From positions 1 to 33,215 of IMG/VR virus record IMGVR_UViG_3300008120_000681: 33,215 nucleotides of DNA; one strand, written 5' to 3'. The notes under the pieces are model-generated. The model was given only the letters and a program-made list of their open reading frames with translations. It had not been told where the DNA came from and did not search any database. This DNA is from a virus. Lineage: Duplodnaviria > Caudoviricetes. Positions 1,456 through 26,418 of this stretch are shown here, piece by piece (within the stretch, counting starts at the first letter, position 1; each line of letters opens with the position of its first letter). The translations under genes were made by a program, and so were the position numbers.

Positions 1456-1719
1456 TCAACTTGTTTGATTTTGAGTTCTTTCTTTATCATATCGTTCGTC
1501 TTTAACGCCTTCATCATATCCTTCTTCATAGCCTTCTTTGTAGCCATCATTATATCCTTCATTATATACTTTTTCCTCTACACAGTCTTCTACTTCTTTT
1601 CTATAGGACCATAATTCCCTGTCAATATCAAACATTAAATCAGTAAGCTGAATTTGTGTGAACTGCATATTGTTCTTGACCAACCACTGTGATATGATAT
1701 TCTCAATATCCATTGTCAT
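1456..1719 (-). CDS. Hypothetical protein with GYxx repeats
   Basis: YNEGYNDGYKEGYEEGYDEG; coupled to the upstream ORF. Confidence 0.65.
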   Translation of the reverse strand: MTMDIENIISQWLVKNNMQFTQIQLTDLMFDIDRELWSYRKEVEDCVEEKVYNEGYNDGYKEGYEEGYDEGVKDERYDKERTQNQTS

Positions 1720-5559: not shown

Positions 5560-5847
5560 ATGTCCAGAGCAAAGACAAATGTGACAATTCTTGACAAGGA
5601 TTTTCTTGTTGAGTTTGACTATACAGTAACCTATGGTGGATGTGCTGCCAGAACATATGGACCAGCAGAAGATTGCTATCCAGCAGAAGATATTGAATAT
5701 AAGATTGATGGAATTGATTTGTATATAGACGAAGGTGGAGAACTAGAGCAGGTTCCAATTCCTGACTGGTTGTATGAAATCCTACATGAAATGCTTATGG
5801 AAAGCCAAGAAGCATACGATATTATTAGAGAAAATGAGGAACGGTGA
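5560..5847 (+). CDS. Hypothetical protein
   Basis: ATG at 5560 with AAGGAG RBS; GPAEDCYPAE motif. Confidence 0.7.
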   Translation: MSRAKTNVTILDKDFLVEFDYTVTYGGCAARTYGPAEDCYPAEDIEYKIDGIDLYIDEGGELEQVPIPDWLYEILHEMLMESQEAYDIIRENEER

Positions 5848-5960
5848 TGAAAAATCTTGTTGCAAAAGAACTAAGATCTGCTAAGTTTAGACAGAGAATA
5901 GTTCGGTCCAAAAAGGGTAAAGGCTCTTATAATCGCAAGGAGAAACATCATGATCTTTGA
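5847..5960 (+). CDS. ArfA-like alternative ribosome rescue factor (37 aa, not in the ORF track)
   Basis: MKNLVAKELRSAKFRQRIVRSKKGKGSYNRKEKHHDL matches the ArfA core FRQR----KKGKGSY-RK-KH; start overlaps the upstream stop. Confidence 0.7.
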   Translation: MKNLVAKELRSAKFRQRIVRSKKGKGSYNRKEKHHDL

Positions 5961-6240
5961 CGAATATGACTTTGAACATACGGCAGAAGTCGTTCTAAAG
6001 ATGAACAAGTCTATGGTTGATCTTTATGACAAGGAAGGTCTTATCAACTTTATGAAGTCTATGGCTTATCAGTATCTTCACGATAAGAATAGCACTTGTT
6101 CTACTGGTGGATTTGTTCTGTCGTCATTCACTGGTTCTGATGGAGAGCGTCATATAAGAGCATCTGTGTCTGCTTCTCTTGTAGAAGAATTTCTCAACAA
6201 AATGAAAAAGAAGCTTGACTCAGCAACTGATCCAGTGTAA
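5950..6240 (+). CDS. Hypothetical protein
   Basis: AAGGAG RBS; 96 aa. Confidence 0.7.
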   Translation: MIFDEYDFEHTAEVVLKMNKSMVDLYDKEGLINFMKSMAYQYLHDKNSTCSTGGFVLSSFTGSDGERHIRASVSASLVEEFLNKMKKKLDSATDPV

Positions 6241-14319: not shown

Positions 14320-15005
14320 AGGAGAATGATAATGTTCAAGATTACAGAAGAAACCCGTAATGCCGCTATTGAAGCAATGAAGGAAATCTTTCTAAAGGCT
14401 GACGATGGCGCAAAACTTGGCGATTATGAAATTGGTCAGGCATTTGACGTTGCTGTTGACATTGTAAAGAAGCAGTTTGGTATGTAATGTATAAAAGAGA
14501 CAAATGGGAGAAGATTAAAAATCTTATCAATGCTGACATTGCCCATGCTGTCCATTATTCGAGTGACAAACTATATGAACATAGTGTGTCACTTCGTTAT
14601 TTAAAATATATGGAAGCAATAGAAATAGAAGAGGATTGGTATAAAGAATATTTAAGGTATATGGAGCAGGGACTATCGTGAAACTTATGAGAGTCTTAGA
14701 CAAAAAAATGATTATGAATGATGGGTATCAACCAGAACTTATTCTAACAATAGCGTTTCCTATGGAAATTGCTAAAGATGAGTCAGAAGTTATTTCTGGC
14801 GAAGAGTTTGTAAGACAACTTAACGAAGCAATAGAAGAATATGATGAGGAAGTAGAATAATGCATAGGTATAAACATCTTGAGTGGCCACGCCATCCATA
14901 TAAGGTGATGTCTAAACATGTTTGGAAATGGGCATGGACTAGATCATTGCCTATGAGATGGAGAGTTATTCGTGCAAATAATTTCCAGAGAAATTGGAGA
15001 ACAAA

Positions 15006-16697
15006 ATGAAATACACAGCACCAGTAGAGTCAACAACATTTCTTCTTCGTGATGTTCTAAAGTTTGATAATGAACTAACAGAACCTATTCTAAATGAAGC
15101 AGCAAAACTATGTGAAGAAGTTATTGCTCCTGTTAATCAGGAAGGTGATGAAGACGGTTGTCAGTATTGGCACAATACTGTAGGAGATTCTAGTTATCCT
15201 GAAATATATATTCCTGTTTGTTTCCATGACCCATGGGAAAAGTTTAGAGACGGAGGATGGATTGGTTTATCAATTCCTGAACGGTTTGGTGGACAGGGTT
15301 TACCGTTTACACTTGCGGTTGCTGCCAACGAATATGTATCCTCGTCTTGCATGGCTTTCTCTTTGTATCCTGGCATTACTCGTGCAGCTATACAGACCCT
15401 ATTAGTATCTGGTTCAGAATATCAGAAAGCAGAGTTCATTCCTAAATTAGTGACTGGTGAATGGACAGGAACAATGTGTTTGACAGAACCACATTGCGGA
15501 ACTGATCTTGGATTGTTGAAGACCAAAGCAATTCAAGATGACGCTGCTGGTGGTTATAGAATCACTGGTCAAAAGATTTTTATTACTGGTGGTGAACATG
15601 ATTTGACTGATAACATTCTACATCTTGTTCTTGCAAGAGTTGAAGGTGATCCAGAAGGTGTAAAAGGTATTAGTTTGTTTGCTGTGCCTAAGTTTTGGAT
15701 GAACGACGACAAGAAGATTCGTAATAATGTCTCTTGTGGTTCTATTGAAGATAAAATGGGTATTCATGGTTCACCAACTTGCCAGATGTTTTTTGATAAC
15801 GCAATTGGCATTCTTGTTGGTGAAAGATGCCGTGGTCTAAATGCCATGTTTGTTATGATGAATGAACTAAGACTTGGATGTGCGGTACAAGGTCTATCAC
15901 AATCGGAGTTGGCTTATCAGAATGCTTTGGAATATGCTAAAGAACGCAAGCAAGGAACTTCTATGGTTCATCGTGATAGTGGCACTGTTCCTATTATATT
16001 GCATCCTGACGTTCGCCGTATGCTCCTTGATGTTAAATGCATCAACGAAGCTAGTAGGTTACTTATTCTAGAAGCTGCAATGCTTGTTGACGATCAATCG
16101 GATGAAGCGCAGGATCGTCTTGGTCTAATGACTCCTGTTCTTAAAGGTGTTATTACTGATTATGGTGTTGAGAATGCTATCAAGATGCAGCAAGTATGGG
16201 GTGGCCATGGTTACGTTCGTGACAATGGCATGGAGCAGATTGTCCGTGATGCTCGTATTGCCATGGTATATGAAGGTGCTAATGGTATTCAGGCACTAGA
16301 CTTGGTTGGTCGTAAGTTGCCAAAGAATATGGGTCGTGCTATTACACGGTTCTTCAAGGACAGTGCAACATTCTTGACCAGTTCTTATGATAAAGGCATC
16401 AATCATATTGTCCAGCCAGTAACAGTAGGATTGAATGAACTAAAGCAAGCAACTGAATGGTTAGCAGAAAATGGTTTGAAGAATCCTAATGATGCGGGTG
16501 GTGCTTCGTATGATTATATGAAGATGTTTGGACTGGTGTTGCTTGGTATGGCACATATAAAGATTTGTCTTGCTACTGACGATAAGGATAGACACAACAC
16601 CGCAGAATACTTTATGAACCGTATTCTACCAGAAACAAGTATGCTATTGAAGCGTATGCGCTTTGGAAGTGAGACGATGATGAAGGCGAACCTGTGA
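15006..16697 (+). CDS. Acyl-CoA dehydrogenase (FadE/DmdC-like long type)
   Basis: MKYTAP start, GGQGLP, TMCLTEPHCGTDL, GQKIFITGG, KMGIHGSPTC, GGHGY, YEGANGIQALDL. Confidence 0.95.
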   Translation: MKYTAPVESTTFLLRDVLKFDNELTEPILNEAAKLCEEVIAPVNQEGDEDGCQYWHNTVGDSSYPEIYIPVCFHDPWEKFRDGGWIGLSIPERFGGQGLPFTLAVAANEYVSSSCMAFSLYPGITRAAIQTLLVSGSEYQKAEFIPKLVTGEWTGTMCLTEPHCGTDLGLLKTKAIQDDAAGGYRITGQKIFITGGEHDLTDNILHLVLARVEGDPEGVKGISLFAVPKFWMNDDKKIRNNVSCGSIEDKMGIHGSPTCQMFFDNAIGILVGERCRGLNAMFVMMNELRLGCAVQGLSQSELAYQNALEYAKERKQGTSMVHRDSGTVPIILHPDVRRMLLDVKCINEASRLLILEAAMLVDDQSDEAQDRLGLMTPVLKGVITDYGVENAIKMQQVWGGHGYVRDNGMEQIVRDARIAMVYEGANGIQALDLVGRKLPKNMGRAITRFFKDSATFLTSSYDKGINHIVQPVTVGLNELKQATEWLAENGLKNPNDAGGASYDYMKMFGLVLLGMAHIKICLATDDKDRHNTAEYFMNRILPETSMLLKRMRFGSETMMKANL

Positions 16698-17490: not shown

Positions 17491-18340
17491 CAGAATACTA
17501 TTATCCTAATGAAGTCAAAATCGTTGTAGAGAATGGTAAGCGAGTTGCTTATCTTAAAGATAACTGGCGAGAGATTAGAGAAAAGAATGAACGCAAAACA
17601 TCACCAGCGGTGTTGCGTGATACCAAAGTTCCCTGGTCTTTCTGGAAGCCATTGAACTACTATTGGGGAGCATGATATGATTTTACAGAATGAAAAACTA
17701 AACGCTATAATTAACGATGTGCCAAAAGAAAACGTGGAAAACAAAATGAACTGTCTGTTCCTTTTTGGCCTTCTAGAAAAGGTTCTATCTGAAAAAGATG
17801 AAGCAATGAGAAATCAGCGCCTCAATGATATGAAAAACATTTTAGAGTGGAAAGAGACATGATCTTTGACTATAAAGAAGATATTTGTAAATATGTGGTT
17901 CACTCCAAGAGGAGTGGAAACGAGTTCGCCATTTCATTTGCCTCCATGGATGAAGTGGCGAACTATGTTGAAACAGAACAAAATGTAACTGGTGTGTGGA
18001 AAGTTGTAGCACAAAAGATACCACCAGAAGTTTATACTAGAAGGGTTAAACATGAGCCATGATCGCTGGTTAAATACTTTCTGTAACTTTGACTTTGGTG
18101 ATCGGTCTGAAAGATTGTTTGATGGACACGATTTTAAACTATTTGCCAAGACAGTTCGTAGTATAAACAGTAAAATTACAGCAAAATCAATCAGACAGTT
18201 ATATTCTGGTTCTGTGTATCCTAATCTAGAATTGTATCTAGAAATTGAAAAGAGATTGAGAAATGTATGATGAAAATTTTTAGCTTGACATTCCGAATCA
18301 AATATAGTATTATATACATACTGGAAGCAGAAAGAAAGGC

Positions 18341-19426
18341 ATGAATATGAAACATTTCAATAAGATGGCAGCCCAAGGTGACTTCGTAATCATTCGGATT
18401 AATAAACTCCCAGAGAATATTGTTCCATTCGATTCCGAAGACGGAAAATATGTTATTGCACATTCAGAAACAGGACACAATCATGTTATGGATGCTGCTA
18501 ATGTCCTAGCATACAAGCCAGAAGGACTAAGCGACAAAGATATCTTTGAGCTTTTCCTTTCAGTTAATCATGAACTGACACCTGAACAGAAAGCGTTGTT
18601 TCCGGTTTATGTTGAAAAGTGGAAAAAAATTGGTTTGACCACTGGTCCTGTTGATTTCGAAAATGCTAAAAAATCCGTATGTTTAGCATACGAAAAAGTA
18701 GGTTTACCACATCCAACTAAATTCTTTGTGGCTAAAAGTCCGATTGATGCTATCCGTCTGATCAAGGAAATTGATCCGTCAATGGATGCTAGAGCAATTT
18801 TTAACAACATGATCTATGGTAATTCTGATAGTTATTGGCTATCGTATTATCAGTTCATTCGGAATGAACTAAAAGTGGAATGCATACACAAGTTGGATGG
18901 TCTTGTTGAGTTGGCCAATCATTGCGGATGGTTGTCTGTGTATGATGACTGTGTTGTATTCCAGGATCGTCCTGAATTTATAAAGTTTGATGATCAGGAT
19001 AGACTACATTCAGAGAATGGACCTTCTATCCGTTATTGTGATGGATTTTCGGTCTATTCTTGGCATGGTGTCAGAATTCCGAAGGAATGGATTGAAAATA
19101 AGAATAGCGCACTAACACCTCAGATTGCTCTCAAATGGGAGAATATGGAGCAGCGACGTGCAGCCTGTGAAATTCTCGGTTGGGATAGGATTATCCGAGA
19201 ATTGAATGCTACCGTTGTTGATTCGGATTACGACCCTCACATTGGAACATTGGTCGATGTTGAAATTCCTGATGTTGGTAAGGAAAGGTTTCTGAAAGTT
19301 CTTTGTGGAACCGGCCGTGAATTTGCTATTCCAGTTCCTCTTGATATCAATACAGCACTAGAAGCGAATGCTTGGACGTTCGATATTGATCCTAATTTGT
19401 TGCGAGAACTTGAAGTGAGAACATGA
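18341..19426 (+). CDS. DUF6745-like protein with a fused N-terminal QGD/HxETGHxH module
   Basis: N-terminus QGDFVI...AHSETGHNH; then LTPEQ...W...AY...GLP.P...SP; YWLSYY; LHSENGPSIRYCDGFSVYSWHGVRIP; NMEQRR; CGTGR...ALEANAWTF. Own promoter TTGACA-N17-TATTAT at 18285-18313. Confidence 0.7.
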   Translation: MNMKHFNKMAAQGDFVIIRINKLPENIVPFDSEDGKYVIAHSETGHNHVMDAANVLAYKPEGLSDKDIFELFLSVNHELTPEQKALFPVYVEKWKKIGLTTGPVDFENAKKSVCLAYEKVGLPHPTKFFVAKSPIDAIRLIKEIDPSMDARAIFNNMIYGNSDSYWLSYYQFIRNELKVECIHKLDGLVELANHCGWLSVYDDCVVFQDRPEFIKFDDQDRLHSENGPSIRYCDGFSVYSWHGVRIPKEWIENKNSALTPQIALKWENMEQRRAACEILGWDRIIRELNATVVDSDYDPHIGTLVDVEIPDVGKERFLKVLCGTGREFAIPVPLDINTALEANAWTFDIDPNLLRELEVRT

Positions 19427-19437
19427 GAACACAAAAT

Positions 19438-19463
19438 AAAAGGCTCTTGCAAGAGCCTTTTTT
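19438..19463 (+). terminator. Perfect 24-bp palindrome / likely bidirectional terminator
   Basis: AAAAGGCTCTTGCAAGAGCCTTTT is its own reverse complement. Confidence 0.8.
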
Positions 19464-19492: not shown

Positions 19493-19696
19493 ATGAATAG
19501 TGTTAAAGAACAAGTCTACTATCAAGTCTGGGATCAAGTCTACTATCAAGTCTGGAATCAAGTCCACTATCAAGTCAGTAATCAAGTCTTGGATCAAGTC
19601 AGGGGTCAAGTCTGGGGTCAAGTCAGTAATAAAGTCCGGGATCAAGTCTTGTATCAAGTCTTGGATCAACTAAAAGAAGACATAGAAAATGAATAG
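19493..19696 (+). CDS. QVxx-repeat mini-protein 1 (67 aa, 13 repeats)
   Basis: MNSVKE-(QVxx)13-QLKEDIENE. Confidence 0.75.
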   Translation: MNSVKEQVYYQVWDQVYYQVWNQVHYQVSNQVLDQVRGQVWGQVSNKVRDQVLYQVLDQLKEDIENE

Positions 19697-19880
19697 TGTT
19701 AAAGAACAAGTCCAAGATCAAGTCAGTAATCAAGTATTGTATCAAGTCAGGAATCAAGTCAGGGGTCAAGTCTTGCATCAAGTCTTGTATCAAGTCAGGA
19801 ATCAAGTCCACTATCAAGTCAGGAATCAAGTCAGGGGTCAAATCTGGGATCAACTAAATGAAGACCTAGAAAATGAATAG
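19689..19880 (+). CDS. QVxx-repeat mini-protein 2 (63 aa, 12 repeats)
   Basis: 8-nt ATGAATAG overlap with unit 1. Confidence 0.75.
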   Translation: MNSVKEQVQDQVSNQVLYQVRNQVRGQVLHQVLYQVRNQVHYQVRNQVRGQIWDQLNEDLENE

Positions 19881-20064
19881 TGTTAAGTATCAAGTCTGGA
19901 AACAAGTCTGTGATCAAATCATGTATCAAGTCCACTATCGAGTCTACTATCAAGTCAGTAATCAAGTCTTGCATCGAGTCAGGAATCAAGTCTGGGATCA
20001 AGTCAGTAATAAAGTCCGGGATCAAGTCTGTGATCAACTAAAAGAAGACCTAGAAAATGAATAG
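19873..20064 (+). CDS. QVxx-repeat mini-protein 3 (63 aa, 12 repeats)
   Basis: Same caps and overlap. Confidence 0.75.
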   Translation: MNSVKYQVWKQVCDQIMYQVHYRVYYQVSNQVLHRVRNQVWDQVSNKVRDQVCDQLKEDLENE

Positions 20065-20260
20065 TGTTAAAGAACAAGTCTGTGATCAAGTCTTGGGTCA
20101 AGTCTACTATCAAGTCTGGAATCAAGTCCACTATCAAGTCAGTAATAAAGTCCGGGTTCAAGTCTGGGATCAAGTCTGGAATCAAGTCTTTGATCAAGTC
20201 TGGGATCAAGTCTTGTATCAAGTCTTGGATCAACTAAAAGAAGACATAGAAAATGAATAG
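20057..20260 (+). CDS. QVxx-repeat mini-protein 4 (67 aa, 13 repeats)
   Basis: Same caps and overlap. Confidence 0.75.
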   Translation: MNSVKEQVCDQVLGQVYYQVWNQVHYQVSNKVRVQVWDQVWNQVFDQVWDQVLYQVLDQLKEDIENE

Positions 20261-20456
20261 TGTTAAGTATCAAGTCTGGGATCAAGTCTGGGATCAAGTC
20301 TGGGATCAAGTCTGGAATCAAGTCTTTGATCAAGTCTACTATCAAGTCAGGGATCAAGTCAGTAATAAAGTCCGGGTTCAAGTCTGGGATCAAGTCTGGA
20401 ATCAAGTCTTTGATCAAGTCTGGGATCAACTAAAAGAAGACCTAGAAAATGAATAG
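20253..20456 (+). CDS. QVxx-repeat mini-protein 5 (67 aa, 13 repeats)
   Basis: Same caps and overlap. Confidence 0.75.
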   Translation: MNSVKYQVWDQVWDQVWDQVWNQVFDQVYYQVRDQVSNKVRVQVWDQVWNQVFDQVWDQLKEDLENE

Positions 20457-20712
20457 TGTTAAGGATCAAGTCAGGAATCAAGTCAGTGATCAAGTCTGGA
20501 ATCAAGTCAGGGTTCAAGTCCAGGATCAAGTCTTGTATCAAGTCCACTATCAAGTCAGTATTAAAGTCAGGAATCAAGTCTGGGATCAAGTCAGGAATCA
20601 AGTCTGGGATCAAGTCAGGGATCAAGTCAGTAATAAAGTCCGGGTTCAAGTCTGGGATCAAGTTAGGGATCAAGTCAGGGATCAAGTCTGGGATCAACTA
20701 AATGAATCATAG
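20449..20712 (+). CDS. QVxx-repeat mini-protein 6 (87 aa, 19 repeats)
   Basis: MNSVKD-(QVxx)19-QLNES; overlaps the start of 20702-20947. Confidence 0.75.
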   Translation: MNSVKDQVRNQVSDQVWNQVRVQVQDQVLYQVHYQVSIKVRNQVWDQVRNQVWDQVRDQVSNKVRVQVWDQVRDQVRDQVWDQLNES

Positions 20713-21842: not shown

Positions 21843-22604
21843 ATGAGTACAGTAACTACTACAGTAACTGCTGAAAAGGCAGAGGTTGTTGATCTACGTG
21901 GTATGTGGATCGGTCTTGGTCTACTTAACGTCTTCTATCTAATCGTTCGCATTTATGAACAGGTCTATGGCTGGAGGGCCGGTCTTGATTCATTTGCACC
22001 AGAGTTTCAGACATATTGGATGTCTATTCTCTGGACAGAGATTCCACTAGAACTAGTGTCAGGACTAGGACTTGCTGGTTATCTTTGGAAGACAAGGGAC
22101 CGAAATATTGACGCCGTTGCTCCTCGTGAGGAAATGCGTCGTTTAGTTACTTTAGTTCAGTGGCTAGTTGTGTATGCCGTTGCCATTTATTGGGGCGCAT
22201 CCTTCTTCACTGAACAGGATGGAACTTGGCACATGACAGTAATTCGTGATACTGACTTTACTCCAAGTCATATTATTGAATTCTACATGAGCTATCCAAT
22301 CTACTCAATCATCGCAGTTGGCGCATTTTTTTATGCTCGCACTCGTATTCCATACTTTTCACATGGATACAGTCTAGCATTTCTGATTGTTGCTATTGGA
22401 CCATTTATGATTATTCCAAACGTTGGTCTTAACGAATGGGGTCATACATTCTGGTTCATGGAAGAACTATTCGTAGCACCACTACATTGGGGCTTCGTGT
22501 TCTTTGGCTGGATGGCACTTGGTGTATTTGGTGTTGTTCTCCAAATCCTTGGTCGTGTTCATGCTCTTGTTGGGCGTGAAGGCGTAGCACTACTAACAGA
22601 ATAA
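21843..22604 (+). CDS. pmoC: Particulate methane monooxygenase subunit C
   Basis: GLDSFAPEFQTYW, FFTEQDGTWHMTVIRDTDFTPSHIIEFY, PNVGLNEWGHTFWFMEELFVAPLHWGFV; multiple TM helices. Confidence 0.97.
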   Translation: MSTVTTTVTAEKAEVVDLRGMWIGLGLLNVFYLIVRIYEQVYGWRAGLDSFAPEFQTYWMSILWTEIPLELVSGLGLAGYLWKTRDRNIDAVAPREEMRRLVTLVQWLVVYAVAIYWGASFFTEQDGTWHMTVIRDTDFTPSHIIEFYMSYPIYSIIAVGAFFYARTRIPYFSHGYSLAFLIVAIGPFMIIPNVGLNEWGHTFWFMEELFVAPLHWGFVFFGWMALGVFGVVLQILGRVHALVGREGVALLTE

Positions 22605-22655: not shown

Positions 22656-22712
22656 TACGTTGCCGAAAGGAACGTATTATTATAGTCTCGCTTAATAGGA
22701 GAAATGTAAATG
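22656..22712 (+). promoter_or_regulatory. ROSE-like RNA thermometer
   Basis: Hairpin TACGTT(G)CC-GAAA-GGAACGTA, then TCTCGCT-TAAT-AGGAGA pairing the SD with a bulged G (UYGCU motif). Confidence 0.65.
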
Positions 22713-23243
22713 ACAAACGATCCATTCCGTGCTTTTCATGCAGACCCACTACTATCAAAGTATCTTGTAGGGTTTGATAATATGTTTCAGCGAATTGCGG
22801 AAGCTAATGAATATCTACCAAAAATTCCTGCATATCCGCCATACAATGTGAAAAAAATTGATGATGAACATTATATTATTGAAATGGCTGTTGCAGGGTT
22901 TGGAAAGCACAATCTAGATATTGAAATGAAAGACAGTGTTCTAACTATTACTGGTAGTTCAGAATCAGAAGAAGGTGACTATCTTCATAAGGGTATTGCT
23001 AATCGTGCTTTCACTCGTAAATTTAATGTTGCTGATACAGTAGAAGTAAAAAATGCAGAACTTACTAATGGTATGTTGAAAATCTTCCTTGAACGTTTTG
23101 TTCCAGAGGAAAAGAAACCGAAGAAGATTGACATCTATGACCCGTTCGGAGTACAAGAAGCTACGAAACAGTTAATTGATGAAACTGGCAAGACATGGGG
23201 TAATATTGCACAAAAAGTAGCTGATGCAATTACACCGAAATAA
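22710..23243 (+). CDS. hsp20: Small heat shock protein Hsp20 (IbpA-like)
   Basis: YPPYNV, IEMAVAGF, YLHKGIANRAFTRKF, NAELTNGMLKIFLE, PEEKKPKKI. Confidence 0.95.
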   Translation: MTNDPFRAFHADPLLSKYLVGFDNMFQRIAEANEYLPKIPAYPPYNVKKIDDEHYIIEMAVAGFGKHNLDIEMKDSVLTITGSSESEEGDYLHKGIANRAFTRKFNVADTVEVKNAELTNGMLKIFLERFVPEEKKPKKIDIYDPFGVQEATKQLIDETGKTWGNIAQKVADAITPK

Positions 23244-24627: not shown

Positions 24628-26418
24628 ATGGATTGGAGAAAAATTGCTCCTTGGGTGTTGTTTGTTCTTGCTGGTATTTTTATGTTTCAGATGTGGAACG
24701 AAACCTCACACAAAACTTACTCAAGAGAAATTGGATTCAGCGAACTCGTTGCTCAGATTGACGAGGGAAGAGTCCATGATCTGACTATTGCAGGAAATCA
24801 GGTTACTGGTCATTTCACTGATAATAGATCATTTAACACATATGTTCCATCAATCGGTAGTTTTATGGAACAGATCAAAGGTAAGAAGTTGCAAGTATCT
24901 GCAACTCCACCAGAAGAAACTGGATTTATCACTAACCTTGCAATCAATCTACTTCCCGTTATTCTGTTCTTTGGTATCTGGATTTGGTTGTCACGAAGAA
25001 CTAATGGCGGCATTGGCCGTGGTCCTATGACTATGGGTAAATCAAAAGCAAAGATGCTTTCAGAAGAAGAAATTAATGTTAAGTTTGATGACGTTGCTGG
25101 TGTTGATGAGGCCAAAGAAGATCTAGAAGAAGTTGTAGAATTTCTGGCAGCACCACATAAGTTTCAAGCAGTTGGTGGTAAAATTCCCAAGGGAGTTTTG
25201 CTTGTTGGTCCTCCAGGAACTGGTAAGACATTGCTTGCTAAAGCAGTTGCTGGTGAAGCAGGTGTTCCTTTCTTCCATCTATCAGGTTCAGACTTCGTTG
25301 AAATGTTCGTAGGTGTTGGTGCATCTCGTGTGCGTGACATGTTCGAACAGGCAAAGAAGAATGCTCCTTGCATTATCTTCATTGACGAAATTGATGCTGT
25401 TGGACGTAATCGTAATGCTGGTATCAGTGGCGGTAATGATGAACGTGAACAGACTCTAAACGCTCTACTTGTAGAAATGGACGGTTTCAATGACAACGAA
25501 GGTATCATCATTATCGCTGCGACAAATCGTGTGGATGTGCTTGATCCTGCCTTGCTTCGTCCTGGCCGTTTTGATCGACAGGTTACTGTTAGTAATCCAG
25601 ACATTGTTGGACGAGAGAAAATTCTAAAGGTTCATAGCAGAGCAGTTCCACTAGGAGCAGACGTTGATCTTAGAACTGTTGCTAAGGGAACCCCTGGTTT
25701 CTCTGGTGCTGATCTAGCAAATCTTGTCAATGAAGCAGCATTGCTTGCCGCTCGTCGTTCTAAGAGAATTGTTACTAAGAAAGAATTTGAAGATGCACGT
25801 GATAAAATTCTTATGGGTGCAGAACGTAGATCTCTTCTAATGTCAGAAGAAGAAAAGAAAATGACTGCTTATCATGAAGGTGGACATGCTCTTGTTTCTC
25901 TGAACATGGAAGGTTCTGTTCCTATTCACAAGGCAACAATCATTCCTCGTGGTCGTGCATTGGGTATGGTTCAGTCTCTTCCAGAGCGTGATCAGATTTC
26001 TCAGTCTTATAAGGAAATGCTTGCTTATCTTGCCATGGCAATGGGTGGACGTGCTGCTGAAGAATTGGTATTTGGTCCAGATAATGTTACATCTGGTGCT
26101 GCTGCTGATATTCAACAGGCATCAAAGATTGCCCGTGCTATGGTTACACAGTATGGATTTTCACCACTAGGTAATGTAGCATATACTGATCCGAATGCTG
26201 ATGTATTCCATGGTCCAAAGGTTGCAGAAGAAACTCAGCGACTTATTGATCTTGAAATAAAGAAGATAGTTGATACTGCATATGCTACTGCCAAGGGTAT
26301 TCTGACAAGAAAGAGAGATCAACTTGATACTCTTGCTAAAGGGTTGCTTGAATATGAAACACTTTCAGGTCAGGAAATTGTTGATCTACTAGACGGAAAG
26401 ATACCAGTCAGGGAATAA
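24628..26418 (+). CDS. ftsH: ATP-dependent zinc metalloprotease FtsH
   Basis: Two TM helices, [38 protein letters not shown]; promoter TTGACT-N17-TATAAT at 24567-24595. Confidence 0.97.

Follow-up and report, generated by a model that had tools for sequence, protein, structure and literature searches.

A phage array of six overlapping tetrad-repeat mini-genes as a probable split and amplified variant of the DUF6745 family

Many proteins of the uncharacterised DUF6745 family (PF20530, phrog_31813) carry an in-frame tract of four-residue units (tetrads) between their SP and YG motifs, as exemplified by gene 38 of Mycobacterium phage prophiGD102-1 (MW584211.1, annotated as hypothetical). The locus analysed here lies in a 33,215-nt virus record fragment (IMG/VR record IMGVR_UViG_3300008120_000681; hereafter the window, meaning the whole stretch of DNA analysed). 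With gene 38 it has in common the core domain and the type of tetrad, in which Trp, Arg, Asp and Gly occupy the variable positions. Unlike in the fused proteins, however, the tract is absent from the DUF6745 protein of this locus, which has a short linker instead, and is encoded as six separate, capped and overlapping genes, termed mini-genes (products, minis).

Diversity-generating retroelements likewise vary surface residues, often aromatic ones, on an otherwise constant scaffold, and the present locus resembles them in this respect. However, it has no template/variable repeat pair, and its variety appears to come from unit shuffling across separate genes. A retroelement of this type was rejected because adenine-specific change is absent; the third base of the first codon of each unit is A in 82 of 82 units, though a change there would be silent. 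No YxDD motif was found in window frames above 200 aa, the window being a 33-kb fragment of the genome.

A comparable evolutionary pattern is known from the Podospora genes het-d and het-e, whose WD40 repeats are described, in the relevant passages of Paoletti et al. (2007, PMC1805685), as undergoing homogenisation inside a genome and exchange from gene to gene, diversification being limited to a few residues per repeat. The mini-genes similarly show locus-specific QV codons and caps, and pN above pS at codons 3–4 (pairwise counts). In contrast, the het-d/het-e products are fungal NLR receptors bearing WD40 in cis on a signalling protein, with no homology to the minis, and a Pfam search found their NTPase and effector domains in neither the minis nor DUF6745. 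The likeness would thus be one of evolutionary pattern only. For the PeSL cassettes of T4-type phages, passages of Arbiol et al. (2010, PMC2839356) present short repeated elements as the means by which genes are shuffled in the variable regions of a T4-like genome. One stem-loop also precedes the mini-gene array, but what is repeated here, caps and 12-bp units, is coding sequence, and the genes are joined by 8-nt overlaps with no intergenic promoter or stem-loop. Given five overlapping junctions and a single hairpin, membership among PeSL cassettes was rejected. As to the genomic setting, the passages of Chen et al. (2020, PMC7674155) on pmoC-phages describe a pmoC that stands by itself next to HSP20, an acyl-CoA dehydrogenase lying close by; these passages of the main text do not mention a mini-gene array.

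The window has the same arrangement, its pmoC, HSP20 and acyl-CoA dehydrogenase being identified by Pfam. The pmoC gene (21843–22604, plus strand; PF04896, E 7.5e-109) encodes a protein 82–86% identical to Methylocystis plasmid copies, plasmids being the collection searched. Given pmoC, the phage likely infects a methanotroph, that is, methane-eating bacteria. Around the array, the acyl-CoA dehydrogenase (14994–16697), pmoC, HSP20 (22710–23243) and an ORF that we take to be FtsH-like (24628–26418) form a cluster, and further window ORFs presumably resemble T4-type replication genes.

The mini-gene array and its units

The array consists of six overlapping ORFs on the plus strand with 82 tetrad units in total: mini-gene 1 (19493–19696, 67 aa, 13 QVxx units, AGAAGG upstream), mini-gene 2 (19689–19880, 63 aa, 12 units), mini-gene 3 (19873–20064, 63 aa, 12 units), mini-gene 4 (20057–20260, 67 aa, 13 units; used for our docking model), mini-gene 5 (20253–20456, 67 aa, 13 units) and mini-gene 6 (20449–20712, 87 aa, 19 units), whose stop overlaps the next ORF (20702) by 11 nt. 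Recounting in the sequence bore out the ORF and unit numbers of the first-pass annotation, and also its near-invariant CAAGTC. This hexamer begins 70 of the 82 units, the others starting with AAAGTC (6), CAAATC (2), CGAGTC (2), CAAGTA (1) or CAAGTT (1); of 78 CAAGTC copies in the window, 70 fall inside the 1.2-kb array. The 8-nt stop/start overlap claimed for all five junctions is present at each of them as ATGAATAG, which stands at all six mini-gene starts. All five start spacings (196, 184, 184, 196 and 196) agree with the 196/184 pattern noted before, yielding a frame shift at each gene. The caps, initially described as constant, are so at the six starts but not at every end, mini-gene 6 terminating in QLNES* with no ENE cap. 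Likewise, the variable dipeptides do form a limited vocabulary, but one of 21 members instead of the 13 given earlier; the variable codons for the most part differ by a single base from TGG or GAT. Elsewhere in the window, a 74-aa ORF on the minus strand (398–622) has a degenerate xxDQ tetrad tract and is possibly a distant mini relative with different codons. An 87-aa ORF (1456–1719, minus strand) carries an EGYx tract with a period of 4 and represents a second type of tetrad.

A purine-rich stretch precedes the ATG of each mini-gene. Together with the 8-nt overlaps, it points to coupled translation, in which a ribosome ending one mini-gene would restart on the next via the self-overlapping cap. 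A sigma-70-like promoter candidate (18285–18313, plus strand, 11 of 12 consensus matches) lies before the small-gene/DUF6745 pair described below, and the best promoter-like site between DUF6745 and the array reaches 8 of 12, under the scan threshold. The same gap contains a hairpin with a T run (19438–19463, plus strand) that is terminator-like on both strands; the scan gave the minus strand, and the plus-strand T run was read from the sequence, with the fold computed. Given this hairpin and no convincing promoter before gene 1, expression of the array may need read-through here.

Codons 3–4 of the units contain no stop, in keeping with the open QV frame noted at first, versus 5.0 stops expected in column shuffles (P 0.0009), and seven 3-unit tracts are common to different mini-genes versus 0.25 in shuffles; these P values overstate independence, since the units are copies of one another, with 30 distinct ones among the 82. 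In the window, pN and pS are 0.447 and 0.211 at codons 3–4, and 0.050 and 0.037 at codons 1–2. Among the 22 lineages listed, pN exceeds pS at codons 3–4 in 21, with synonymous sites nearly fixed, and is below pS at codons 1–2 in 20; all these values are pairwise counts over recombining copies and not a formal selection test. Relative to the large ORFs of the window, positions 3–4 are enriched 12-fold in Trp, 3-fold in Asp and 2.9-fold in Arg. Stop depletion and pN/pS thus lend support, at the level of sequence statistics, to coding in the QV frame, constraint on Gln and Val, and diversification of positions 3–4, as had been proposed. Furthermore, median mini length is 64 aa (243 minis, 58 clusters), and 124 of 132 close neighbours overlap. 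Across these clusters, caps are common within one locus and differ between loci, QV codon choice is locus-specific, and the non-QV frames have stops in 55–231 of the 243 minis. The largest arrays comprise 18 and 40 repeat ORFs.

As noted from the outset, mini-genes 4 and 5 share a long identical tract, which measures 77 bp (20133–20209, plus strand, identical to 20353–20429). In assemblies L086 and L167 this tract is the point at which a gene 4/5 hybrid is joined, leaving no separate mini-gene 5; the resulting five-gene array is 220 bp shorter, and its flanks are 99.7–100% identical to those of the six-gene form. The hybrid fits the 'ongoing' unequal crossover claimed by the first-pass annotation, but may equally be an assembly collapse, which could give the same product. 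The difference of five versus six genes between assemblies would also be expected if the whole array were an assembly artefact, or a non-coding satellite with an incidental open frame. We find this scarcely credible, given that the array of assembly L001 is letter-for-letter the same as that of the window, that the same layout occurs in 58 clusters with other caps and codons, that the QV frame is the one fused in DUF6745 elsewhere, and that stops are depleted.

A different alternative accepts the minis as proteins that complete DUF6745 in trans, yet treats them as an interchangeable structural subunit, the variety of which is a by-product of slippage and crossover with no selected repertoire. 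Arrays one gene different between nearly identical flanks, the reuse of units between genes and variable codons mostly one base away from TGG and GAT would all fit such neutral turnover, as would position 3, which mostly faces the scaffold in the model below. However, the excess of pN over pS at codons 3–4 amid nearly fixed synonymous sites, the Trp, Asp and Arg enrichment and the size of the largest arrays are at odds with it, and we consider it unlikely.

The DUF6745 gene and its small partner

Upstream of the array, a 361-aa ORF (18341–19426) matches DUF6745 (PF20530, E 7e-30, 104 bits, cut-off 27), and its listed homologues of about 290 aa cover 76–80% of it. This partial coverage arises because the window has lost 162 bp between two genes that are separate in the same region of assembly L001, where they encode a 118-aa His-rich protein and a 288-aa DUF6745. 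As a result, residues 1–78 of the 118-residue small protein (18341–18574, plus strand; PF31129, phrog_27831, His-rich and all-beta) are fused in frame, at the deletion junction (18574/18575, plus strand), to residues 6–288 of the intact repeat-less DUF6745 (18575–19426, plus strand), which contains the PF20530 match and is the predicted scaffold of the minis. The in-frame deletion has imperfect microhomology at its ends, and costs the small protein 7 of 12 invariant residues and DUF6745 five residues. The 162-bp segment is present in all three other near-identical contigs covering the site, as well as in runs X1, X2 and X3, where no joint was seen; these runs, used for a read check on the array flank, are possibly of one campaign, and one of them is possibly the source of the window. 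The deletion is therefore private to the window, as either a rare allele or an assembly error. The presence of the segment in L001, the other contigs and X1–X3 also led us to reject the 361-aa ORF as a natural fusion in the window. A 366-aa cluster with both small-protein and DUF6745 parts was found elsewhere.

With regard to the features of long-form DUF6745, the window protein has no in-frame tract between SP and YG, and its adjacent PF31129 gene is intact in L001 and truncated and fused in the window. DUF6745, the structural model of which has a pLDDT of 90, carries a short helix-loop-helix at the tract site of its fused relatives. None of the six minis matches PF20530; their counterpart is the insert, which precedes the matched domain. 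Fold search against the PDB (Foldseek, E 0.001) gave no match for DUF6745 or the small protein, the best VIA-align Z of the latter being 3.0. A viral structure library yielded, at E 0.002 or better, solely DUF6745 or uncharacterised proteins, and sequence search of solved structures yielded nothing under E 0.03. PADLOC, the library of which excludes anti-defence proteins, matched neither DUF6745 nor the small protein nor mini 4. Weak and partial Pfam, PHROG and PADLOC matches on the minis were rejected, the partial Cas2 matches of PADLOC on mini 6 being low-complexity noise.

In 7 of 15 long matches (P0123, P0124, P0126–P0129 and P0131), an HNH or endonuclease VII domain stands before the small protein, and in L322 an HNH gene (5615–6007) separates DUF6745 from the small gene. 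These cases suggest repeated homing-endonuclease invasion at the junction of the two genes. An intein reading of the HNH domain was dropped, given its N-terminal, non-inserted position. Furthermore, a contig in runs X2 and X6 lacks 185 bp, roughly the length of a small ORF, at L001 4333–4519 (window about 17670–17860), which is strain variation near the module.

Fused and repeat-less DUF6745 across genomes

Searches with repeat-less DUF6745 as queries gave 195 matches, which fell into 92 groups (90% identity, after a coverage filter). One group was reassigned from fused to repeat-less because its repeat sat in an upstream mini-gene frame, and three repeat-less groups found solely via the repeat pattern were excluded because they have minis by construction. 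Free QV minis flank 57 of 71 repeat-less DUF6745 clusters versus none of 18 fused ones. When 23 entire records carrying a fused gene were searched, 8 being at least 90% complete, the QV profile matched nowhere except at the fused gene. Among 12 repeat-less records for which no mini had been scored in the flank, the profile search revealed free minis in 5; a further one has a two-unit tract within DUF6745, and the remaining 6 are fragments. In 40 of 58 clusters a mini lies at most 120 nt from DUF6745 or the small gene. The small PF31129 gene is the usual third component: it neighbours 63 of 71 repeat-less and 12 of 18 fused clusters, and is present at 49 of 55 prokaryote loci. The first proposal of a peptide repertoire missed this link: from these comparisons, the minis appear to be an internal tract detached from the adjacent DUF6745 and not an independent repertoire.

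Of the 55 DUF6745 loci in prokaryote genomes, 41 are fused, and their tetrads include QL, AT, SV or NL besides QV. A scan of 119 of the 156 adjacent ORFs showed repressors, recombinases, NinB, Lar and integrases next to prokaryote and prophage copies, a setting suggestive of an early accessory module. One distant subfamily (L166, L179, L193 and L226), under the score filter and hence uncounted, is repeat-less with free QV ORFs (40 in L226) and a different C-terminal part, and may be a separate fission. Other DUF6745 proteins (P0146–P0148 and P0138) bear N-terminal DUF4116 repeats, or a long non-repetitive insert at the tract site; judging from such sequences, this site tolerates varied modules.

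On a quick, unrooted tree the fused/split label changes 6 times versus 16.6 in shuffles, so that most split forms would represent one radiation. The well-supported independent fused/split pairs number two, with which a sign test cannot reach 0.05, and the association of minis with repeat-less DUF6745 is not phylogenetically independent. Given the unrooted tree, fission as the direction of change is deduced from the wider spread of fused forms.

In the reverse search, the 80 loci with full flanks (56 short loci excluded) came from 66 contigs, comprising 23 with a fused gene, 17 with free repeats and DUF6745 nearby, 25 with free repeats and no flanking DUF6745, and 1 with neither. Two of these 25 contigs, most of which are less than 20% complete, had DUF6745 elsewhere; indeed, arrays can sit more than 6 kb from it. 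One 92%-complete record (G023) encodes a 220-aa free QV protein (L233, 7976–8638), with no DUF6745 or small gene detected in it. This record, the distant arrays and the hairpin between DUF6745 and the array here are what one would expect of minis acting alone as free decoys, inhibitors or toxins, with the proximity to DUF6745 as a mere trace of origin. However, free minis are absent from the 23 records with fused DUF6745, minis mostly lie close to DUF6745 or the small gene, and a mini folds poorly in the model when DUF6745 is replaced (see below). Free action is thus, in our estimate, quite improbable.

Predicted complex and putative mode of action

Structure prediction, which the first-pass annotation had proposed as a check, was run on mini 4 and the intact DUF6745, not the fusion of the window. 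In the resulting model mini 4 docks on DUF6745 with a score of 0.84, versus 0.01 for the best of three controls; the score mark is reached by 116 of 157 solved pairs and 2 of 215 mismatched pairs. The docking runs have at least 87% of contacts in common, and the pLDDT of 81–86 with this partner compares with 52 for mini 4 beside an unrelated chain. Mini 4 is modelled along residues 2–172 of DUF6745, including the linker at the tract site of the fused forms. Position 1 and Val contact DUF6745 in 13 of 13 units each, position 3 in 10 of 13 and position 4 in 3 of 13. Given that the halves of a split gene tend to pass, the model may mirror contacts learned from abundant fused sequences. The variable face suggested earlier is retained at position 4, predicted to lie mostly off the partner, but largely not at position 3; since the latter, the most variable position, mostly contacts DUF6745, only part of the variable surface would be free.

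On a straight alpha-helix, the Q/V stripe drifts by 36.7–40 degrees per unit. The hydrophobic moment of the minis is 0.06–0.18 at 100 degrees and 0.36–0.46 at 90 degrees. Given this drift, which stems from the 4-residue period, the helix should curve round its partner. The constant Q/V face of the earlier proposal therefore does not hold for a straight helix, but Gln and Val do contact the partner in the model. A beta-strand or amyloid reading, raised by the high moment at 180 degrees, is less likely in view of Ala-rich tetrads in fused relatives. The angle per unit, together with the radius of 6.7–7.6 angstroms that a 34-angstrom pitch needs, is close to B-DNA values. By this geometry alone, the tetrad helix could read or mimic nucleic acid with one unit per base pair, positions 3–4 forming a TALE-like diresidue. 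However, such an angle match arises from any 4-residue period, the median net charge of the minis is 0 (108 negative, 25 zero and 99 positive; n=232), the window copies range from 0 to −7, and the constant face is taken up by DUF6745 in the model. We thus give this alternative very little credence.

The comparisons and the docking model enable us to propose a putative scheme for the origin and use of the array. Initially, the tetrad tract would have split from DUF6745 by fission. Its copies may then have multiplied by unequal crossover at the self-overlapping caps, with 12-bp units being shuffled between the copies. Each mini is predicted, from the docking of copy 4, to wrap on the repeat-less DUF6745 via its constant Gln and Val, and the variable residues left exposed would likely serve as interchangeable binding surfaces. 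As part of a putative early accessory module, these surfaces may bind host proteins that vary between strains, most plausibly defence components. Surfaces for host proteins are favoured here because Trp, Asp and Arg are enriched at positions 3–4, and both Trp and Arg are frequent at the hot spots of binding interfaces. Detachment of the insert and its docking onto DUF6745 are, by this model, probable. For the reading as a whole, with coupled minis that dock as detached DUF6745 tetrad inserts and present interchangeable surfaces in a host-binding role, our preference is a modest one. An anti-defence role of the module is a tentative suggestion. Equally speculative is the idea of a widespread binder library among phages, in which a DUF6745 scaffold and its His-rich partner load any of up to dozens of trans-encoded helical inserts; were it true, the phage would possess a renewable repertoire against host defence proteins, reshuffled in steps of 12 bases and independent of reverse transcriptase.

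In summary, the array is a real, undescribed split and amplified variant of the uncharacterised DUF6745 family. The open-access literature, to which our search was confined, contained nothing relevant on the DUF6745 names, repeat peptides or this architecture, and assemblies can readily overlook or collapse arrays of this kind. If our reading is right, it offers a direct handle on DUF6745, since all three components (scaffold, inserts and partner) are of small size and expressible. It would also add a variable-surface strategy distinct from retroelement mutagenesis and from in-cis repeat receptors, in which, across many uncultured aquatic phages, a rapidly changing repeat has left its parent protein for arrays of exchangeable mini-genes.
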